Below are positions 5,916-35,943 of a stretch of DNA of 64,000 nucleotides, piece by piece. Positions within the stretch are counted from its first letter, which is position 1; every line of letters starts with the position of its first letter. The notes beneath the pieces are model-generated. The model was not told the DNA's origin and ran no database searches. It saw only the letters and a list, made by a program, of their open reading frames with translations. The DNA is from a virus. Its lineage: Duplodnaviria; Heunggongvirae; Uroviricota; Caudoviricetes; Demerecviridae. A program made the position numbers and the translations under genes. The stretch is from IMG/VR virus record IMGVR_UViG_2974655058_000001, positions 7,652 through 71,651 of that record; one strand, given 5' to 3'.

Positions 5916-6287
5916 TTAATGAAGTTGTTTACCACTTCTTAACATAGTGGCCGTTTCCATAAGACCTAGCGTAGTATCACGCTTATTGATCTGTTTACCA
6001 AGTTCATCAGTACGTTTACTGATGTAAGCATTAATAGCCATATTCATAGCTGTAGCGAGATCTTCTTTGGTTATCTCTTCATCGTCTAAAGCTAATTTAG
6101 CCAAAGAATCAAATGTGCTAGAGAGTCCTATAAGATCTGAGGTTTCTCCAGCCAAAATAGGATTAATATTATCTACTGTTACTTCTAGCATGGAGTTAAC
6201 AATATCTTCACCGTCTATTAGACCAAATTCAATATTACTCTCCCACTCCTTCATCTGTTCCAGCAATGGATTTTTCTTTTCTGTCAT
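5916..6287 (-). CDS. hypothetical protein (longer ORF extends to 6353)
   Basis: ORF track; internal start chosen to reduce overlap. Confidence 0.4.
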   Translation of the reverse strand: MTEKKNPLLEQMKEWESNIEFGLIDGEDIVNSMLEVTVDNINPILAGETSDLIGLSSTFDSLAKLALDDEEITKEDLATAMNMAINAYISKRTDELGKQINKRDTTLGLMETATMLRSGKQLH

Positions 6288-6696
6288 GGTAGAGGTTTCC
6301 TGTATCTGTGGGTAAGAAGGATGATTGCGTTTTAGGTGGATGTTGCTTAGCAATCCAGTTAAGAATCAGCACGCGACTAGGAACAATATCGGTGTTATAC
6401 CAAAAATCGTGAACCCATTGACGAGCATCTTCAAACTTACCAAATTTATACGCTTTCTTAAACAATTCAAATCCAAAACAATCTGGTGTAAAGTCTACTT
6501 CGCGATATTGAATTACTTTAGAACCTGTTAAGTCTTGAATCGCTGCATTAATTTCTGTATGTGAGAACTTTGTTTCATGAAACTTATTAAAGAATCGGTA
6601 ATTGAAGCGTCCATTCGTTTCGACAAATAACTGGATGAAGAGATCGTTAAATTGGTTATCAAACCAGTAATTCTGTAGTTGTTGTAGTGCTGTCAT
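6235..6696 (-). CDS. hypothetical protein (153 aa)
   Basis: ORF track. Confidence 0.55.
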   Translation of the reverse strand: MTALQQLQNYWFDNQFNDLFIQLFVETNGRFNYRFFNKFHETKFSHTEINAAIQDLTGSKVIQYREVDFTPDCFGFELFKKAYKFGKFEDARQWVHDFWYNTDIVPSRVLILNWIAKQHPPKTQSSFLPTDTGNLYHDRKEKSIAGTDEGVGE

Positions 6697-6893
6697 TTAC
6701 GAACCCCGTTAATTGCCATAATGATGCCTTCGTACATAAAAGGAAGTAACCCAGAAGTATAGAATATATTTTCCGTTATTCCTAGATGTCGAAAAAGTAT
6801 ATTAAACAATGCTGTTAGAAATACAACCTGAGGCAGTAATACAAAATACTCAGTTACAATCTTTGGTGCCTGATAAACAAGACGTTTTATCAT
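6693..6893 (-). CDS. small membrane protein
   Basis: two hydrophobic segments. Confidence 0.45.
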   Translation of the reverse strand: MIKRLVYQAPKIVTEYFVLLPQVVFLTALFNILFRHLGITENIFYTSGLLPFMYEGIIMAINGVRK

Positions 6894-6992
6894 TGTTTTT
6901 AAGTCTCCTTATTACTTTGGCCTGCTCCACAATAATGAAAACTGCGAGCACTAATAGTGCTATTAGTCCCGCAGTAACTGGTACTAGATCAA

Positions 6993-7319
6993 TCATGGGA
7001 GACGCCATACATAATTAGCTGTCTGTAGAACTTCGGAAACACCATCATGTTGCATCACTACAGACGTTGGAGAGTAACTATTCGCCAGTTCTGTACGAAC
7101 CATCTCACGTTCTTCTCCAGTTTCAATATTTTTAACAACCACCTTCATTTTGAGAGGTGTCAGTTCAGAGAGCGGTTTCCAAGAGTCCTCAATTTCAATT
7201 CCTACCTTTTTCTCGATTACCATGAGAACTTCTAGTGTGTCATCTGGAATACTAATATTATTATTTACAAACTGTAACAGCTCATGCAAAGTATTTAATT
7301 CGTTAAAATTAAGTTTCAT
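6993..7319 (-). CDS. hypothetical protein
   Basis: ORF track; start trimmed to the MKLNF ATG just after the upstream stop. Confidence 0.5.
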   Translation of the reverse strand: MKLNFNELNTLHELLQFVNNNISIPDDTLEVLMVIEKKVGIEIEDSWKPLSELTPLKMKVVVKNIETGEEREMVRTELANSYSPTSVVMQHDGVSEVLQTANYVWRLP

Positions 7320-7554
7320 CTTTAAGAATATCCTCAACCATATCACAGGACTGTTGCAATTCGTCAGCAATGCGCTTAATATCGGTCTTTGTTACTTTAC
7401 CAATTAACATCACCAGTAACATAGAAAAGATAATAAGTGGAACTGGAATAACAAATAATGCTACCTTAGCTACATTCTTTGGTGCCCATGTGTGGTACTT
7501 AGTAACTAGAACTCCCACCACGATTAGATAAAATGCTAGAATAAACATCATCAT
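7309..7554 (-). CDS. membrane protein (2 TM)
   Basis: hydrophobic helices. Confidence 0.5.
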   Translation of the reverse strand: MMMFILAFYLIVVGVLVTKYHTWAPKNVAKVALFVIPVPLIIFSMLLVMLIGKVTKTDIKRIADELQQSCDMVEDILKDET

Positions 7555-7832
7555 TTTTTAATCTCCGTGATTATCTGTGTACGCATTACTTTAGCGGGTA
7601 ATTTATTATTACCAATTATTGCCTCGATATTATTTAATTTTTCTTTAAGAATATCTGAGCGTCTTTGTGCTAATTCAATATCTTGCTCTTGCTCTAGCAA
7701 GCGGTGGTGTAGCCCATCATTAGTAATGAGCATACTTTCCATGTTTTTCCGTGCATTCACAATCCCAATAACTCCACCAATCGCTACTAGCGTAGTAAGA
7801 ATTAGTAACCCAATAAGAATTTCTATAATCAT
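7551..7832 (-). CDS. membrane protein (TM plus coiled coil)
   Basis: N-terminal TM helix. Confidence 0.5.
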   Translation of the reverse strand: MIIEILIGLLILTTLVAIGGVIGIVNARKNMESMLITNDGLHHRLLEQEQDIELAQRRSDILKEKLNNIEAIIGNNKLPAKVMRTQIITEIKK

Positions 7833-20180: not shown

Positions 20181-20375
20181 CTATAGTTTACCACGATATA
20201 CAGAAACTGTCTTACCAGTTTGGTTCATAACGTATGCTACTTCATCTTCTTTTAAGAAGATTGCTTGATCTATTCCAGAAATAGCTATGCTTTTATTTCT
20301 GGGATTAAACCCTACGCTTTTACCAACATGAATCTGCTCACCACCATCAGTGGACATTATTTTAACTGTTAACAT
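20181..20375 (-). CDS. hypothetical small protein
   Basis: ORF track. Confidence 0.45.
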   Translation of the reverse strand: MLTVKIMSTDGGEQIHVGKSVGFNPRNKSIAISGIDQAIFLKEDEVAYVMNQTGKTVSVYRGKL

Positions 20376-21745: not shown

Positions 21746-21821
21746 TGGAGCGGCTAGAGGGAATCGAACCCTACTCAGCGAGGCTTGGAAGGCCTGCGAC
21801 ACAACCCGTGTGCTTAACCGC
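21746..21821 (-). tRNA. tRNA-Gly (TCC)
   Basis: acceptor GCGGTTA/TAGCCGC, loop CTTCCAA. Confidence 0.65.
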
Positions 21822-21829
21822 TTATTATT

Positions 21830-22297: not shown

Positions 22298-22525
22298 AAT
22301 TGAAAACTCGCAGGGTTAGCGAAACCATCCTCAATTAGCATGTTCTAGAATACTAATCAAGTTATCTCCTATTGCACGCAGCTCAAGACGAGTACGAATT
22401 TTCAATTGTGGCGGCTCTCAGAAACTCTTCTATTCTAGCCTCAGAAGCTTACCCCGAACGCATGTCGGGAAAGTCTTTCCAAGCGCATCAAATAGCACCG
22501 TTACACTTTGAGCCATTGATGTATC

Positions 22526-22610
22526 AAGGAACAGAAGGAGTTGAACCTTCACGAGATAGACCATTTATCTCAACCGCTTTTAAGGTATATTTCTAGGAGT
22601 GGATGTTCCT
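22526..22610 (-). ncRNA. tRNA-like RNA (85 nt, complementary AGGAACA/TGTTCCT termini, T-arm GAAGGTTCAACTCCTTC, no clear anticodon arm)
   Basis: T-arm and acceptor pairing are present but the D and anticodon arms are not canonical. Confidence 0.3.
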
Positions 22611-22857
22611 AGTAAACCTATTCGGCAGTCCCGTCTACCAATTCCGGCATATTCCAAGAATTTTTATAAACCAGCAGAAGCCTCATTTAAGGCATCAACA
22701 ATAGCTTCACGTTGGGTCATTCCATACCCAGTGGAATCTAGGTGTGGCAAATAAGCCATCCATCCCTTATCTGTTTCATGAAGGCATGCTTTAAATTTTT
22801 TACCGTCCTTCATTGTTACAGTAACTGTTTTGCTCATAATGATTCCTTATAGTTAAT

Positions 22858-23318: not shown

Positions 23319-23691
23319 AAATTCTTTAGTTTACTAAGGCTATTGGCTCGGCGTAACTACAGCACCTTCACTTCGAGCGGAAGGAACCGCGTCATCTCGC
23401 AAACCCGATACACTATTCAGTTGCCACTGAATCTAGTGGACTAATCTAGAACCTCTCCCAAATAGTAGGGATCGTGCTTTTTGGCAGCCAGTCCTAGGTC
23501 GAGCTAATACCTTAGTGAACTATGATGAGGATTTCTCCTCATCAATTTATATAAATATTATATCAAGAAATTAAGCATTAAGCAACTGCGTTTTTGAAAT
23601 TTCTTGGACTTGGTACTCGGTGATAGAATCTAACTATCGCTACCGCCGTGTAAAGACGGGGTTCTCTCATTAAACTAACCGAGCAAAAATT

Positions 23692-24569: not shown

Positions 24570-24942
24570 AATATTATTTCTTCAACCACAACAAAGATAA
24601 GCCCAGCATACTAAAGCCGCTAACTAATCCGATACATTTTTCTTCTATAGTAAAAGTATCTAGATTAAATGCTGTTATAGCTATGGGCATACACCATAAT
24701 GCCATAAAAACTTGAGCTATCTTGTGTTTCATTTTGCTTTCCTTCTCTTCACTTTATAAAATATATTATAAAGATAATTAAGCTGAATAGCAAATGAATT
24801 TTTAATAAATTTACTTATTGTGTAGGCTACCTGGAGGCTACCAACCCCACGGCTGACAAAGAAGTTTGCGAGACCTCTCTTAAATGTCAGAATAGACCCA
24901 CCGATCTATCGGAACCTACATAATAAGTAGACTTTATAGTGT

Positions 24943-25063
24943 CATTCTAGACAGGACTCGAACCTGTTATCACTTGTGCGGACTTACGAGAACCATTCTT
25001 TCACTCGAATCGAACGAGCTTCTGCCCTCGCCAAGCTGGTTTCCCCATCAACCACGCTAGAAT
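24943..25063 (-). ncRNA. 121-nt tRNA-like stable RNA candidate (perfect ATTCTAG/CTAGAAT termini, two T-arm-like hairpins)
   Basis: termini pair over 7 bp like an acceptor stem; internal T-arms ACAGGTTCGAGTCCTGT and GCTCGTTCGATTCGAGT; too long and irregular for a tRNA. Confidence 0.4.
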
Positions 25064-25185
25064 GTTTGATTGTTTTCAGTGCAAGAGTCCGAGTCTTGGA
25101 CACGACCGCTTCGCAAGTACATAGGCAGCTTATCATGAGTCAGCACTTCCGAATTGCTAGCTCCGTGTTCTGCACTGAAATTCTG

Positions 25186-25839: not shown

Positions 25840-25941
25840 GCTTGTTTCCTCAGTTATTAATGAAAATGGTATCTGTGGCTGAATTCGATGTCAGCAATGA
25901 TAGCTGGTTGGCTACCGGTTTACTTAACTCTACACAGAATT

Positions 25942-26024
25942 TGGCGGGCCGTGTAGGATTCGAACCTACGTTGTCTTTCGACACGGATTAACAATCCGCC
26001 GCCAAACCGCTTGGCTAACGACCC
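25942..26024 (-). tRNA. tRNA with anticodon GTT (an Asn anticodon) and a long class-II-like variable arm
   Basis: 83 nt; loop TTGTTAA; variable hairpin GTC-GAAA-GAC. Confidence 0.5.
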
Positions 26025-26033
26025 TAAGTTTGT

Positions 26034-26174
26034 GTTGCTGACTAGGATTTTCACCTAGACGGAGTTAGCACCGTAGCGTGTAGCGGCATACCTCTCCAAA
26101 CCGTGCCTCATCTTTCAATTACGGAGACAGTGTTCCTACGCGTGCCTGAATTGATTTAACAATTCTTTCAGCAA
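26034..26174 (-). ncRNA. 141-nt structured RNA candidate (perfect TTGCTGA/TCAGCAA termini, non-canonical T-arm-like hairpin CTAGGTGAAAATCCTAG)
   Basis: complementary 7-nt termini plus internal hairpins; sits between tRNA genes. Confidence 0.35.
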
Positions 26175-26176
26175 AT

Positions 26177-26253
26177 TGGACGACCGCATGAGATTTGAAC
26201 TCACATAAAAAGGATTTGCAATCCTTCGCCTAAGCCATTCAGCCAACGGTCGG
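26177..26253 (-). tRNA. tRNA-Cys (GCA)
   Basis: anticodon stem AAGGA/TCCTT, loop TTGCAAA. Confidence 0.75.
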
Positions 26254-26430
26254 TTTATCTTGTTTTTCGAGATCTTCAAATTCTAGATCATTGAAGTTCC
26301 CTAGAGTACGGGTATAGAACCCATCCCCTGAGTCATAGCCTGATTTACCACAATCACACATTTTAAATTCACGAAGATGTGTGAAAATATGCTCAGAACC
26401 ACAACACTTAAATTTAACTAACTTTCTCAT
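26239..26430 (-). CDS. small Cys-rich Zn-binding-like protein
   Basis: CCGSEH...CDCG; the gene end overlaps the tRNA 5' region by a few nt. Confidence 0.4.
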   Translation of the reverse strand: MRKLVKFKCCGSEHIFTHLREFKMCDCGKSGYDSGDGFYTRTLGNFNDLEFEDLEKQDKPTVG

Positions 26431-28783: not shown

Positions 28784-28861
28784 TGGTGGCTCCCCGAGGA
28801 TTCGAACCTACGTACCTTCCGGTTATGAGCCGGGTGCTCATACCATATGAGCTTGAGAACC
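28784..28861 (-). tRNA. tRNA (anticodon CAT), third CAT species
   Basis: acceptor GGTTCTC/GGGAGCC with G-U pairs, loop CTCATAA. Confidence 0.6.
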
Positions 28862-33075: not shown

Positions 33076-33147
33076 TACCGACCGTAGGATTCGAACCTAC
33101 ATCTTCCACCAGTTACGGCTTGATAATACCAATTATACTAGGACGGC
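33076..33147 (-). pseudogene. degenerate tRNA-like sequence (canonical T-arm and acceptor-like termini, no anticodon arm, no CCA)
   Basis: GTAGGTTCGAATCCTAC T-arm; GCCGTCC/GGTCGGT termini with one mismatch. Confidence 0.35.
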
Positions 33148-35304: not shown

Positions 35305-35943
35305 TTACTCTACTTCAATGAAAGTAGAGGCGTTAGACTCGGACAGAACAAAATCAACATTTGTTGCAAAGTCCTGGTATTCCTCGTCATGCTGTTTAAT
35401 CAGCTTCTCCAGTTCCAGCGGATCAATCAAGAATGGAGTATTCTTGAGTTCCAACAGGTTGAGCTGCATTTTAACTTCATCTTCGGAAGTTTTCTTATCG
35501 CGGGTAGCCATGCTATCCTGCAAACGCTCATATTTAGCATCAAACTGTGCTTTCTGCGTATTAAACTTAACCGTAGCGGCATGGAACTGCTTACGCATGT
35601 TAGCCAGCAGTTGAGCTTTAAGTTCCATAGAACGCTTAGCTTCAATTGCTTCCGCAACAGTCATCTTACGAGAGCCAATCTCAACGATTGTTTCCGCATT
35701 GCTTTTAATCAGAGCAGCTTTGATACGATCACGCTGGGACATCATATCCAGCAGAGACTGGAAATCAGTCTTAATACGAGTAGACAGATCAGCTACTTCG
35801 ATTGCAGCGCCAACTACAACCTGGTTTTTATCCTTACCTTCACCAACAGCGATCAGAAGCTGCTGTTCAGTAGCTTTACGGATTTTAGCTTCCAGAGATT
35901 TGATAGTTGCTAGAGCACGAGTTTTAGAAATACGAGTGGTCAT
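35305..35943 (-). CDS. coiled-coil hypothetical protein with host-optimal codon usage
   Basis: ORF track; rich in ctg/gct/cgt codons. Confidence 0.6.
   Translation of the reverse strand: MTTRISKTRALATIKSLEAKIRKATEQQLLIAVGEGKDKNQVVVGAAIEVADLSTRIKTDFQSLLDMMSQRDRIKAALIKSNAETIVEIGSRKMTVAEAIEAKRSMELKAQLLANMRKQFHAATVKFNTQKAQFDAKYERLQDSMATRDKKTSEDEVKMQLNLLELKNTPFLIDPLELEKLIKQHDEEYQDFATNVDFVLSESNASTFIEVE

Follow-up and report, generated by a model that had tools for sequence, protein, structure and literature searches.

Small stable RNAs are known from the tRNA gene clusters of phages T4 and T5. In T4, species 1 RNA (rnaC, 139 nt) and species 2 RNA (rnaD, 119 nt) lie at the end of the tRNA cluster; Northern blots detect RNAC and RNAD, and their function was still called unknown in 2022 (PMC9697503). 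For the T5 group, the curated GenBank records of the Ksenzenko laboratory (AJ604531, Salmonella phage 5; NC_042564, BF23; AY692264, T5 st0) describe RNA1, RNA2, and RNA3 as "tRNA-like RNA with unknown functions" and RNAI, RNAIII, RNAIV, RNA2H, and RNAX as "stable RNA with unknown functions." T4 species 1 and 2 and T5 RNA I, III, 1, 2, and 3 have gone without a known function for about 50 years. Here, a 64,000-nt stretch of DNA from a Demerecviridae virus (positions 7,652 to 71,651 of IMG/VR record IMGVR_UViG_2974655058_000001; referred to below as the window) was analyzed. The 141-base spacer between its tRNA-Cys and tRNA-Asn genes (26034 to 26174, minus strand) is a real, conserved, tRNA-shaped noncoding RNA (ncRNA) gene in which a 70-base folded domain replaces the anticodon loop. 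What is new is an RNA gene that lacks RNA annotation in the records inspected and is absent from Rfam; the class itself was already known.

The window was 100% identical to Salmonella phage VSe12 (MN022787; T5-like, Demerecviridae) over 401 queried bases. Copies of RNAIII, RNAI, RNA1, RNA2H, RNAIV, RNA2, and RNA3, 87 to 100% identical to those of phage 5, are present in the window, and no Rfam family was found for these copies. RNA1, RNA2, and RNA3 share with the element a place in the tRNA cluster, the tRNA strand, a position flush with tRNAs, acceptor-like termini, and a T arm; the body of RNA1 and of RNA2, like that of the element, is much longer than a tRNA. In RNA2, for example, the termini are CAUUCUAG/CUAGAAUG, the T arm is canonical, and the central arm is long. 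However, the T loop of RNA1 and RNA2 is the canonical GGUUCAAGUCC, whereas that of the element is UGAAAAU, and the D loop of the element lacks GG. BLAST gave no homology of the element to RNA1, RNA2, RNA3, RNAI, RNAIII, or RNAIV, and the covariance model found no second copy of it in the window. The Mydovirus stretches that were fetched (~6 to 14 kb) held a homologue of this element only and none of RNA1, RNA2, or RNA3. The curated phage 5 record leaves the Asn-Cys interval unannotated, though phage 5 has the element.

Since neither BLAST nor the covariance model gave homology, the element is best regarded as a new member of an architectural class and not of a homologous family. The original prediction, made from the sequence alone, had set it beside a 121-nt element (very probably RNA2) and had proposed a family of tRNA-derived structured RNAs. 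That family stands as an architectural class of T5-like tRNA clusters, while neither search linked the element to RNA1, RNA2, or RNA3. In T4, rnaC is of comparable length and bears, toward its 3' end, a T arm resembling that of a tRNA, but a cloverleaf with a 7-bp acceptor stem does not emerge cleanly from its minimum-free-energy fold, and T4 belongs to another phage family. When the T4 locus was searched with the covariance model at an E value of ≤1, no match and no homology to rnaC or rnaD was obtained. Literature searches found no description of this RNA.

ARAGORN called 22 tRNA genes between 20.4 and 32.6 kb of the window, every one on the minus strand, which is also the strand of the element. 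Read along that strand, the CCA of tRNA-Cys (ending at 26177) is followed by a 2-nt spacer (AU), the element from U26174 to C26034, a 9-nt spacer, and G1 of tRNA-Asn. The gaps between other adjacent tRNA genes of the cluster are 5 to 7 nt, and the spacers of the element are similar. No open reading frame (ORF) spans the element on either strand, and no promoter-like or terminator-like site was found inside it on the minus strand. Co-oriented with the tRNAs, the element is presumably co-transcribed with them. Below, RNA nucleotide n corresponds to window position 26175 - n, so that nt 1 is 26174 and the discriminator-like nt 141 is 26034.

On a hand-checked alignment, the RNAalifold consensus was a cloverleaf with an extended anticodon arm (Table 1). 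The 7-bp terminal pairing first seen on the plus strand (TTGCTGA at 26035 to 26041 with TCAGCAA at 26168 to 26174), the 6-bp hairpin GAATTG/CAATTC, and the hairpin CTAGG-TGAAAAT-CCTAG were all present as the original prediction had them, the last on the minus strand at 26042 to 26058 and abutting the 3' terminal strand; the minimum-free-energy fold contained all three. That prediction had given the termini on the plus strand while reading the T arm on the minus strand; the minus strand is the functional one. Its larger claim, a tRNA-derived RNA with an acceptor-like stem and a noncanonical T arm, also held, because the parts are connected as in a tRNA cloverleaf. A8 and A9 precede the D-like hairpin, A28 follows it, and no nucleotide separates the T-like arm from the 3' acceptor strand, so that the element matches a tRNA exactly in its connectors (2, 1, and 0 nt) and in the stacking of a 7-bp acceptor stem on a 5-bp T stem.

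Compared with canonical tRNA (RF00005), the element thus keeps the 7-bp acceptor stem, the 2-nt and 1-nt connectors, a D hairpin, a 5-bp anticodon-type stem, a variable region, a T arm of 5 bp and 7 nt, and the absence of a spacer before the 3' acceptor strand. In contrast, it has neither an anticodon loop nor U33, and equivalents of G18G19 and psi55-C56 are absent; the T-like loop does retain equivalents of U54 and A58. At the anticodon-stem position, the 5-bp stem 29-33/104-108 extends past the bulged G34 as 35-39/99-103, and nt 34 to 103 (70 nt) form a three-way junction in place of the 7-nt anticodon loop. Within this domain, the H4 loop is 14 nt long and includes a conserved UGARAG; H4 of Mydovirus, read directly, is UCCCCA/UGGGGA with the 7-nt loop UGAGAGU. 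The 12-nt H5 loop UUGGAGAGGUAU is purine-rich, GGAG-rich, and Shine-Dalgarno-like. It may pair with nt 111 to 114 (a candidate pseudoknot, 78-81 with 111-114, weakly supported), and both this pairing and the hairpin 101-104/113-116 fit the data, neither of them decisively. The unpaired nt 141 is C here and U in relatives, and CCA is not encoded.

A canonical tRNA was rejected, as the anticodon loop and the elbow nucleotides are absent and both ARAGORN and Rfam were silent. At default thresholds, ARAGORN did not call the element in tRNA, intron, or tmRNA mode. No Rfam family lay over it when the 15-kb tRNA region was searched at an E value of ≤1, nor was a family found for the element (as a 171-nt stretch) or the Mydovirus copy at an E value of ≤10, RF00005 included; the sole match at relaxed E was a 23-nt HIV stem-loop on the wrong strand, a chance hit. 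In the window, the next-best match of the covariance model was a genuine tRNA whose whole length aligned to the model apart from the insert.

For the comparative analysis, a covariance model was built and 11 distinct homologues were realigned to it. The paired columns formed standard pairs in 97.8% of 415 cells, and both sides had changed in 15 of 38 pairs. In 500 shuffles, neither the share of paired cells nor the covariation score came up to that of the real alignment, and when partners were slid by 1 to 3 columns, only 25 to 45% of cells were paired, with 0 to 2 double-changed pairs. The double-changed pairs were spread over five helices: acceptor-like (4 of 7), D-like (5 of 6), anticodon-like (2 of 10), H4 (3 of 6), and T-like (1 of 5). 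In the acceptor-like, D-like, and T-like helices (helices 1, 2, and 6), 100% of cells were paired, with compensatory changes.

The acceptor stem reads UUGCUGA/UCAGCAA in Salmonella and Escherichia coli phages, UUACUGA/UCAGUAA in the T5-like phages of Klebsiella and Yersinia, and UUGUCUA/UAGACAA in Mydovirus. The terminal complementarity is therefore conserved, with compensatory changes, across two phage families; its lack of conservation had been named beforehand as the outcome that would speak against a structured RNA. In the anticodon-like stem, pairs 31:106 (C-G to G-C) and 32:105 (A-U to U-G) covary and G29-U108 is invariant. H4 shows compensatory changes at 47:70, 48:69, and 50:67, its stem being UGUCUC/GAGGCA, UGCCAC/GUGGCC (first pair lost), or UCCCCA/UGGGGA; its score of 86% arises because the automatic alignment by the model sets the Mydovirus H4 in a poorer register. 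In the T-like arm, the loop is invariant, and pair 119:131 switches in Mydovirus from A-U to U-A. The copy of Salmonella phage KKP_3822 was kept out of the final alignment. This copy (1510 to 1639 of stretch L009) has many single-base deletions that break helices, which looks like sequencing or assembly error.

The strand was assigned from the same alignment. The consensus energy was -41.0 kcal/mol on the tRNA strand and -27.1 kcal/mol on the reverse complement (RNAalifold), and 34 of 415 cells were G-U pairs, including the invariant G29-U108 and U75-G88. The plus strand was considered and rejected: it has the better single-sequence z-score (-2.71), but the poorer consensus energy, and each G-U would become C-A. 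Thus, the G-U pairs, the consensus energies, and the tRNA-type polarity of the connectors place the RNA on the minus strand.

Homologues were found by BLAST in ~220 phage records (Salmonella, 120; Escherichia, 53; Klebsiella, 31; and a few from Shigella, Yersinia, and Citrobacter). Most were 95 to 100% identical, and T5-like copies from Klebsiella and Yersinia were 87 to 90% identical. A handful of Klebsiella records held a copy of ~76% identity, and the three inspected were myoviruses of ~142 to 147 kb. VIK251 and BIS47 are classified as Mydovirus (Vequintavirinae), a family unrelated to the T5-like phages, and P8734 is unclassified with the same organization; in all three, the copy lies within the phage's own tRNA array, on the tRNA strand. 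None of the ~60 matches listed had an RNA annotation over the element, and there were a few evidently spurious coding sequence (CDS) calls ("hypothetical protein" and "DNA ligase"). The ~220 phage genome records could gain an ncRNA annotation and lose such calls.

A wider search with exact 16/17-mers and gapped patterns against IMG/VR, Joint Genome Institute (JGI) metagenomes, and GTDB genomes, followed by a covariance-model screen, yielded no further lineages; only the T5-like and Mydovirus copies were real. About 130 IMG/VR pattern matches were due to chance, as were all 43 matches among 185,579 bacterial and archaeal genomes, which fell in unrelated GC-rich taxa. Five JGI metagenome contigs matched, and the four that were screened (L188 to L190 and L192) were all T5-like. 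A weak 58-nt match in L203 to L205 was discarded, since it consists of tandem GCTACGGTGAAAAT repeats by a promoter-like region with no tRNAs near. The element had no similarity to 5,426 complete E. coli genomes, which gives no evidence for a host origin or an obvious antisense target.

The element is more uniform between lineages than the tRNAs around it. Its identity to the Mydovirus VIK251 copy was 75.9%, versus a mean of 65.2% (range, 54 to 73%) across 15 same-anticodon tRNA pairs, and its identity to a Klebsiella T5-like copy was 87.2%, versus 65.4% for 9 tRNA pairs. Selection, horizontal exchange, or both keep it so. The most conserved parts are unpaired: AUGCCGCUACACGCUACGG, CGCGUAGG, the UGARAG apex of H4, the GGAG-rich H5 loop, and the T loop. 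Loops and junction strands are invariant, whereas stems covary, and the 19-nt block AUGCCGCUACACGCUACGG is unchanged in alignments of T5-like phages with Mydovirus.

The element always lies inside tRNA arrays and on the tRNA strand, with neighbors that vary: Cys-element-Asn in VSe12, Cys-Asn-element in phiR2-01, Asn-element-(85 nt)-Cys in Klebsiella T5-like phages, and Ser-element-Ser in VIK251. It starts 2 to 3 nt past the CCA end of the upstream tRNA in VSe12, phiR2-01, the Klebsiella T5-like phages, VIK251, and P8734; in BIS47, no called tRNA lies directly upstream. The Mydovirus similarity ends near structural boundaries. The differing neighbors and the start just past an upstream CCA indicate that the element behaves as a discrete, gene-like module.

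Table 1. Coordinates of the element, its predicted parts, and related features (positions refer to the window unless another genome is named)
Feature	RNA nt	Position	Strand	Remarks
Whole tRNA-shaped RNA gene	1-141	26034..26174	-	141 nt; covariance-model match spans these exact coordinates, 167-170 bits
Upstream neighbor, tRNA-Cys(GCA)		26177..26252	-	CCA encoded
Acceptor-like stem, 5' strand	1-7	26168..26174	-	UUGCUGA; starts 2 nt past tRNA-Cys CCA end
D-like hairpin	10-27	26148..26165	-	6-bp stem GAAUUG/CAAUUC (10-15/22-27); loop UUAAAU without G18G19
Extended anticodon-like stem, 5' strand	29-39	26136..26146	-	GGCAC (29-33), bulged G34, CGUAG (35-39)
Hairpin H4 of inserted domain	46-71	26104..26129	-	6-bp stem UGUCUC/GAGGCA (46-51/66-71)
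Hairpin H5	72-91	26084..26103	-	Invariant 4-bp stem CGGU/GCCG (72-75/88-91); consensus-fold prediction
Junction strand	92-98	26077..26083	-	CUACACG; within 19-nt block AUGCCGCUACACGCUACGG
Extended anticodon-like stem, 3' strand	99-108	26067..26076	-	CUACGGUGCU
Variable-region equivalent	109-116	26059..26066	-	8 nt; AACUCCGU
T-like arm	117-133	26042..26058	-	5-bp stem CUAGG/CCUAG (117-121/129-133); 7-nt loop UGAAAAU
Acceptor-like stem, 3' strand	134-140	26035..26041	-	UCAGCAA; followed by nt 141 and 9-nt spacer to tRNA-Asn
Downstream neighbor, tRNA-Asn(GUU)		25942..26024	-	
RNA1 copy		22515-22658	-	About 145 nt
RNA2 copy		24940-25064	-	125 nt
RNA3 copy		25867-25939	-	73 nt
T5-group stable/tRNA-like RNA copies		22299-22658, 23338-23509, 24819-25064, 25867-25939	-	
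172-aa T5orf172-domain gene		BF23 (L195) 6749-7267; T5 (L002) ~6928-7446		

The features of tRNA precursors that are recognized by RNase P, by the CCA-adding enzyme, and by the exonucleases that trim 3' ends are kept in the element, and those of decoding and of the D/T elbow are lost, from which we infer excision, 3' trimming, accumulation, and action in trans. The 12-bp acceptor + T minihelix, a structural prerequisite for an RNase P substrate, is present, and with a 70-nt three-way junction in place of the anticodon loop the element cannot decode. On balance, we consider it likely that the element is an independent ncRNA gene whose product is a tRNA-processed scaffold that displays the conserved domain and acts in trans. 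Its structure, its strand, its conservation under selection, its modular occurrence in tRNA arrays, and its dispensability are observed; the processing route, the stability of the product, and trans action via the inserted domain are inferred.

In the proposed route, the minus strand would be transcribed within a polycistronic early tRNA transcript in the order tRNA-Cys, element, tRNA-Asn. RNase P would cut at U26174 to free the 5' end, and a cut by RNase P ahead of tRNA-Asn followed by 3' exonuclease trimming would set the 3' end, after which CCA could be added. This route would yield a stable RNA of ~141 to 144 nt that accumulates and works in trans through its three-way-junction domain, the most probable binding partner of which would be a protein or RNA of the host or the phage.

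A comparable principle is used in RNA engineering. In the tRNA scaffolds of Ponchon and Dardel, a structured RNA replaces the anticodon loop, and the chimera is reportedly processed and stabilized like a tRNA in E. coli. The element likewise holds a foreign structured RNA at the anticodon-loop position; unlike these laboratory designs, it is natural and its processing is proposed, so that it would be a natural example of the scaffold principle. tmRNA and the bacterial Y-RNA-like YrlA also join a tRNA-like module to a non-tRNA functional domain. However, the element lacks the G3-U70 pair and the pseudoknot or tag-ORF modules of tmRNA, and its sole mini-ORF crosses the T arm. tmRNA was rejected accordingly: the ARAGORN tmRNA search was negative even at the 80% threshold, and pair 3:70 is G-C or A-U. 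As for YrlA, its tRNA-like module has the RNA termini at the opposite end, and the element has no Rfam match.

As a more specific version of the scaffold reading, the RNA could be a tRNA-shaped decoy or inhibitor, matured by the host, whose invariant junction domain traps or misdirects a tRNA-binding factor. We put this forward tentatively and regard it as on the unlikely side. The target could, speculatively, be an immune effector directed at tRNA (an anticodon nuclease or a CCA-end-modifying toxin) or, via the GGAG-rich loop, a component of translation or the ribosome. Such a role would be compatible with the current view of phage tRNA clusters as countermeasures to tRNA-cleaving immunity (PMC10644984; PMC10264068). 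If true, it would explain why the element is retained and apparently exchanged between unrelated phages of Enterobacteriaceae despite being dispensable in the laboratory, and it would be the first function for a 50-year-old class of phage tRNA-like stable RNAs.

Several observations weigh against a structured RNA gene acting in trans. The single-sequence fold on the minus strand has a z-score of -1.86, which is not significant alone, and the case therefore rests on the comparative data. The covariation comes from about three lineages, hence from few independent events. The inner helix 35-39/99-103 and H5 are invariant, so that covariation neither supports nor contradicts them, and alternative registers are possible there: CGCUAC occurs twice (nt 90 to 95 and 97 to 102), and the hairpin 101-104/113-116 is also feasible. 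The +1 base U and the lack of an encoded CCA are both suboptimal for E. coli RNase P. Finally, the element is dispensable, being absent from T5 and BF23, and T5 is the strain with the most RNA data. In Salmonella phage NR01 (924 to 1700 of stretch L019), the 3' half of the element is joined to sequence normally several kilobases upstream; the deletion takes out the 5' half together with tRNA-Cys, Phe, Glu, Tyr, and Leu and likewise speaks for dispensability.

In T5 and BF23, the Asn-Cys interval holds the ORF trn 2.8 (ORF065), encoding a 172-aa protein with Pfam MUG113 and T5orf172 matches and a weak GIY-YIG match; the Pfam family T5orf172 was probably named after this T5/BF23 protein. Directly past tRNA-Cys, ~12 nt remain similar to the 5' end of the element, which suggests replacement by insertion. 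NR01 is a natural partial knockout, in agreement with the T5 tRNA region being described as a deletion hotspot (PMC12483538). With T5, BF23, and NR01 as natural knockouts, covariation support, occurrence in two families, and a defined invariant domain, the element offers a tractable entry to the question of what tRNA-like stable RNAs do.

Among other explanations, an unlikely one is a cis-acting processing or punctuation element, the fold of which would recruit RNase P to separate the tRNAs or set their 3' ends, the excised RNA having no role. The flush placement between tRNAs, with spacers like those between the cluster's tRNA genes, would suit such an element, as would its dispensability and the fact that an acceptor + T minihelix is a minimal RNase P substrate. 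However, adjacent tRNAs elsewhere in the cluster stand 5 to 7 nt apart and need no helper. An element of this kind would have no need to keep, across two families, a 70-nt insert with conserved loops and a 19-nt block that never changes, nor to be more conserved than the tRNAs. The neighbors also vary from genome to genome.

It is quite improbable that the element is a decaying tRNA pseudogene with a neutral insertion, that is, a functionless transcribed spacer. The silence of the tRNA finders, the D and T loops without canonical GG and T-psi-C, and the losses in T5, BF23, and NR01 are what decay would produce, but compensatory changes in five helices, invariant unpaired segments, and conservation above that of functional tRNAs between lineages, in ~220 genomes of two unrelated families, are not.

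Conservation at the DNA level, as the target of a homing endonuclease or a recombination site in a deletion-prone tRNA region, appears very unlikely. A T5orf172 (GIY-YIG-like) gene does occupy the slot in T5 and BF23, and one endpoint of the NR01 deletion lies inside the element within the known deletion hotspot (PMC12483538). A DNA site, however, predicts neither compensatory changes with strand-specific G-U pairs nor a tRNA-like connector geometry.

Even less probable is a tRNA gene with a small intron, the splicing of which would restore an anticodon loop, for example, that of a CUA amber suppressor. With the threshold lowered to 90%, ARAGORN does fit a tRNA to the VSe12 copy (anticodon CUA, 63-nt insert), but nothing is found at its defaults (ARAGORN -i included), the relaxed solution lacks U33 and sets the insert at a noncanonical position, and solutions are inconsistent across homologues, as the Mydovirus copy gives no solution at 90% and, at 80%, one that differs from and is incompatible with that of VSe12. 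A group I intron was rejected, as no Rfam family, of group I introns or otherwise, matches the region at an E value of ≤10 and 63 to 70 nt is too short for one.

A 12-codon mini-ORF (AUG at nt 86 to 88, 26089 to 26087, right after the GGAG-rich stretch; UGA stop in the T loop), read directly or delivered as in tmRNA to yield the peptide MPLHATVLTPSR, is very improbable: it has the same length and frame in Mydovirus (MPLHATGLTLSW, with GGGAGG ahead of it by direct reading), but its Shine-Dalgarno-like core ends 1 to 2 nt before the AUG, it crosses the H5, H3, and T stems so that the tRNA-like domain would have to unwind for reading, of the four codons that differ, three carry radical substitutions, whereas RNA pairing accounts for or is compatible with each of the five nucleotide changes, and, as noted above, the features of tmRNA are missing.

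A 64-aa ORF (window 20181 to 20375, minus strand; phrog_3909, no Pfam match) lies just downstream of tRNA-Met and is 77 to 79% identical at the protein level to ORFs in the tRNA clusters of VIK251, P8734, and one Klebsiella T5-like phage. Judged by its sequence, it appears to be a second module common to the tRNA clusters of both phage families. It is absent from T5, BF23, phage 5, and BIS47, and it was rejected as a co-occurring protein partner of the element; phage 5 and BIS47 have the element without it, which argues against strict linkage.

A few further observations concern the surrounding sequence. PS3-1, phB7, phC17, SCF, IME178, and SP01 match the 401-nt query (window 25900 to 26300) in two pieces with a span of ~515 bp, and the element itself (152-nt query) in one piece, indicating an insertion of ~115 bp near the element and outside it. 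Three Rfam tRNA-clan matches on the minus strand were not called by ARAGORN (28787 to 28861, 33076 to 33147, and 21749 to 21822; 40.3, 35.5, and 30.9 bits) and are probably T5 tRNA-Ile2 (CAU), the pseudo-tRNA near RNAX, and tRNA-Gly. In AY587007 (T5 ATCC 11303-B5), the tRNA feature coordinates seem to be shifted by ~50 to 80 nt; for example, tRNA-Cys is annotated at 7400 to 7475 and its BLAST match lies at ~7454 to 7549. Finally, a 212-aa ORF at window 35305 to 35943 (minus strand) is 98.6% identical to its T5 counterpart and has a homologue of 39% identity in Mydovirus BIS47 (5953 to 6588 of stretch L026).

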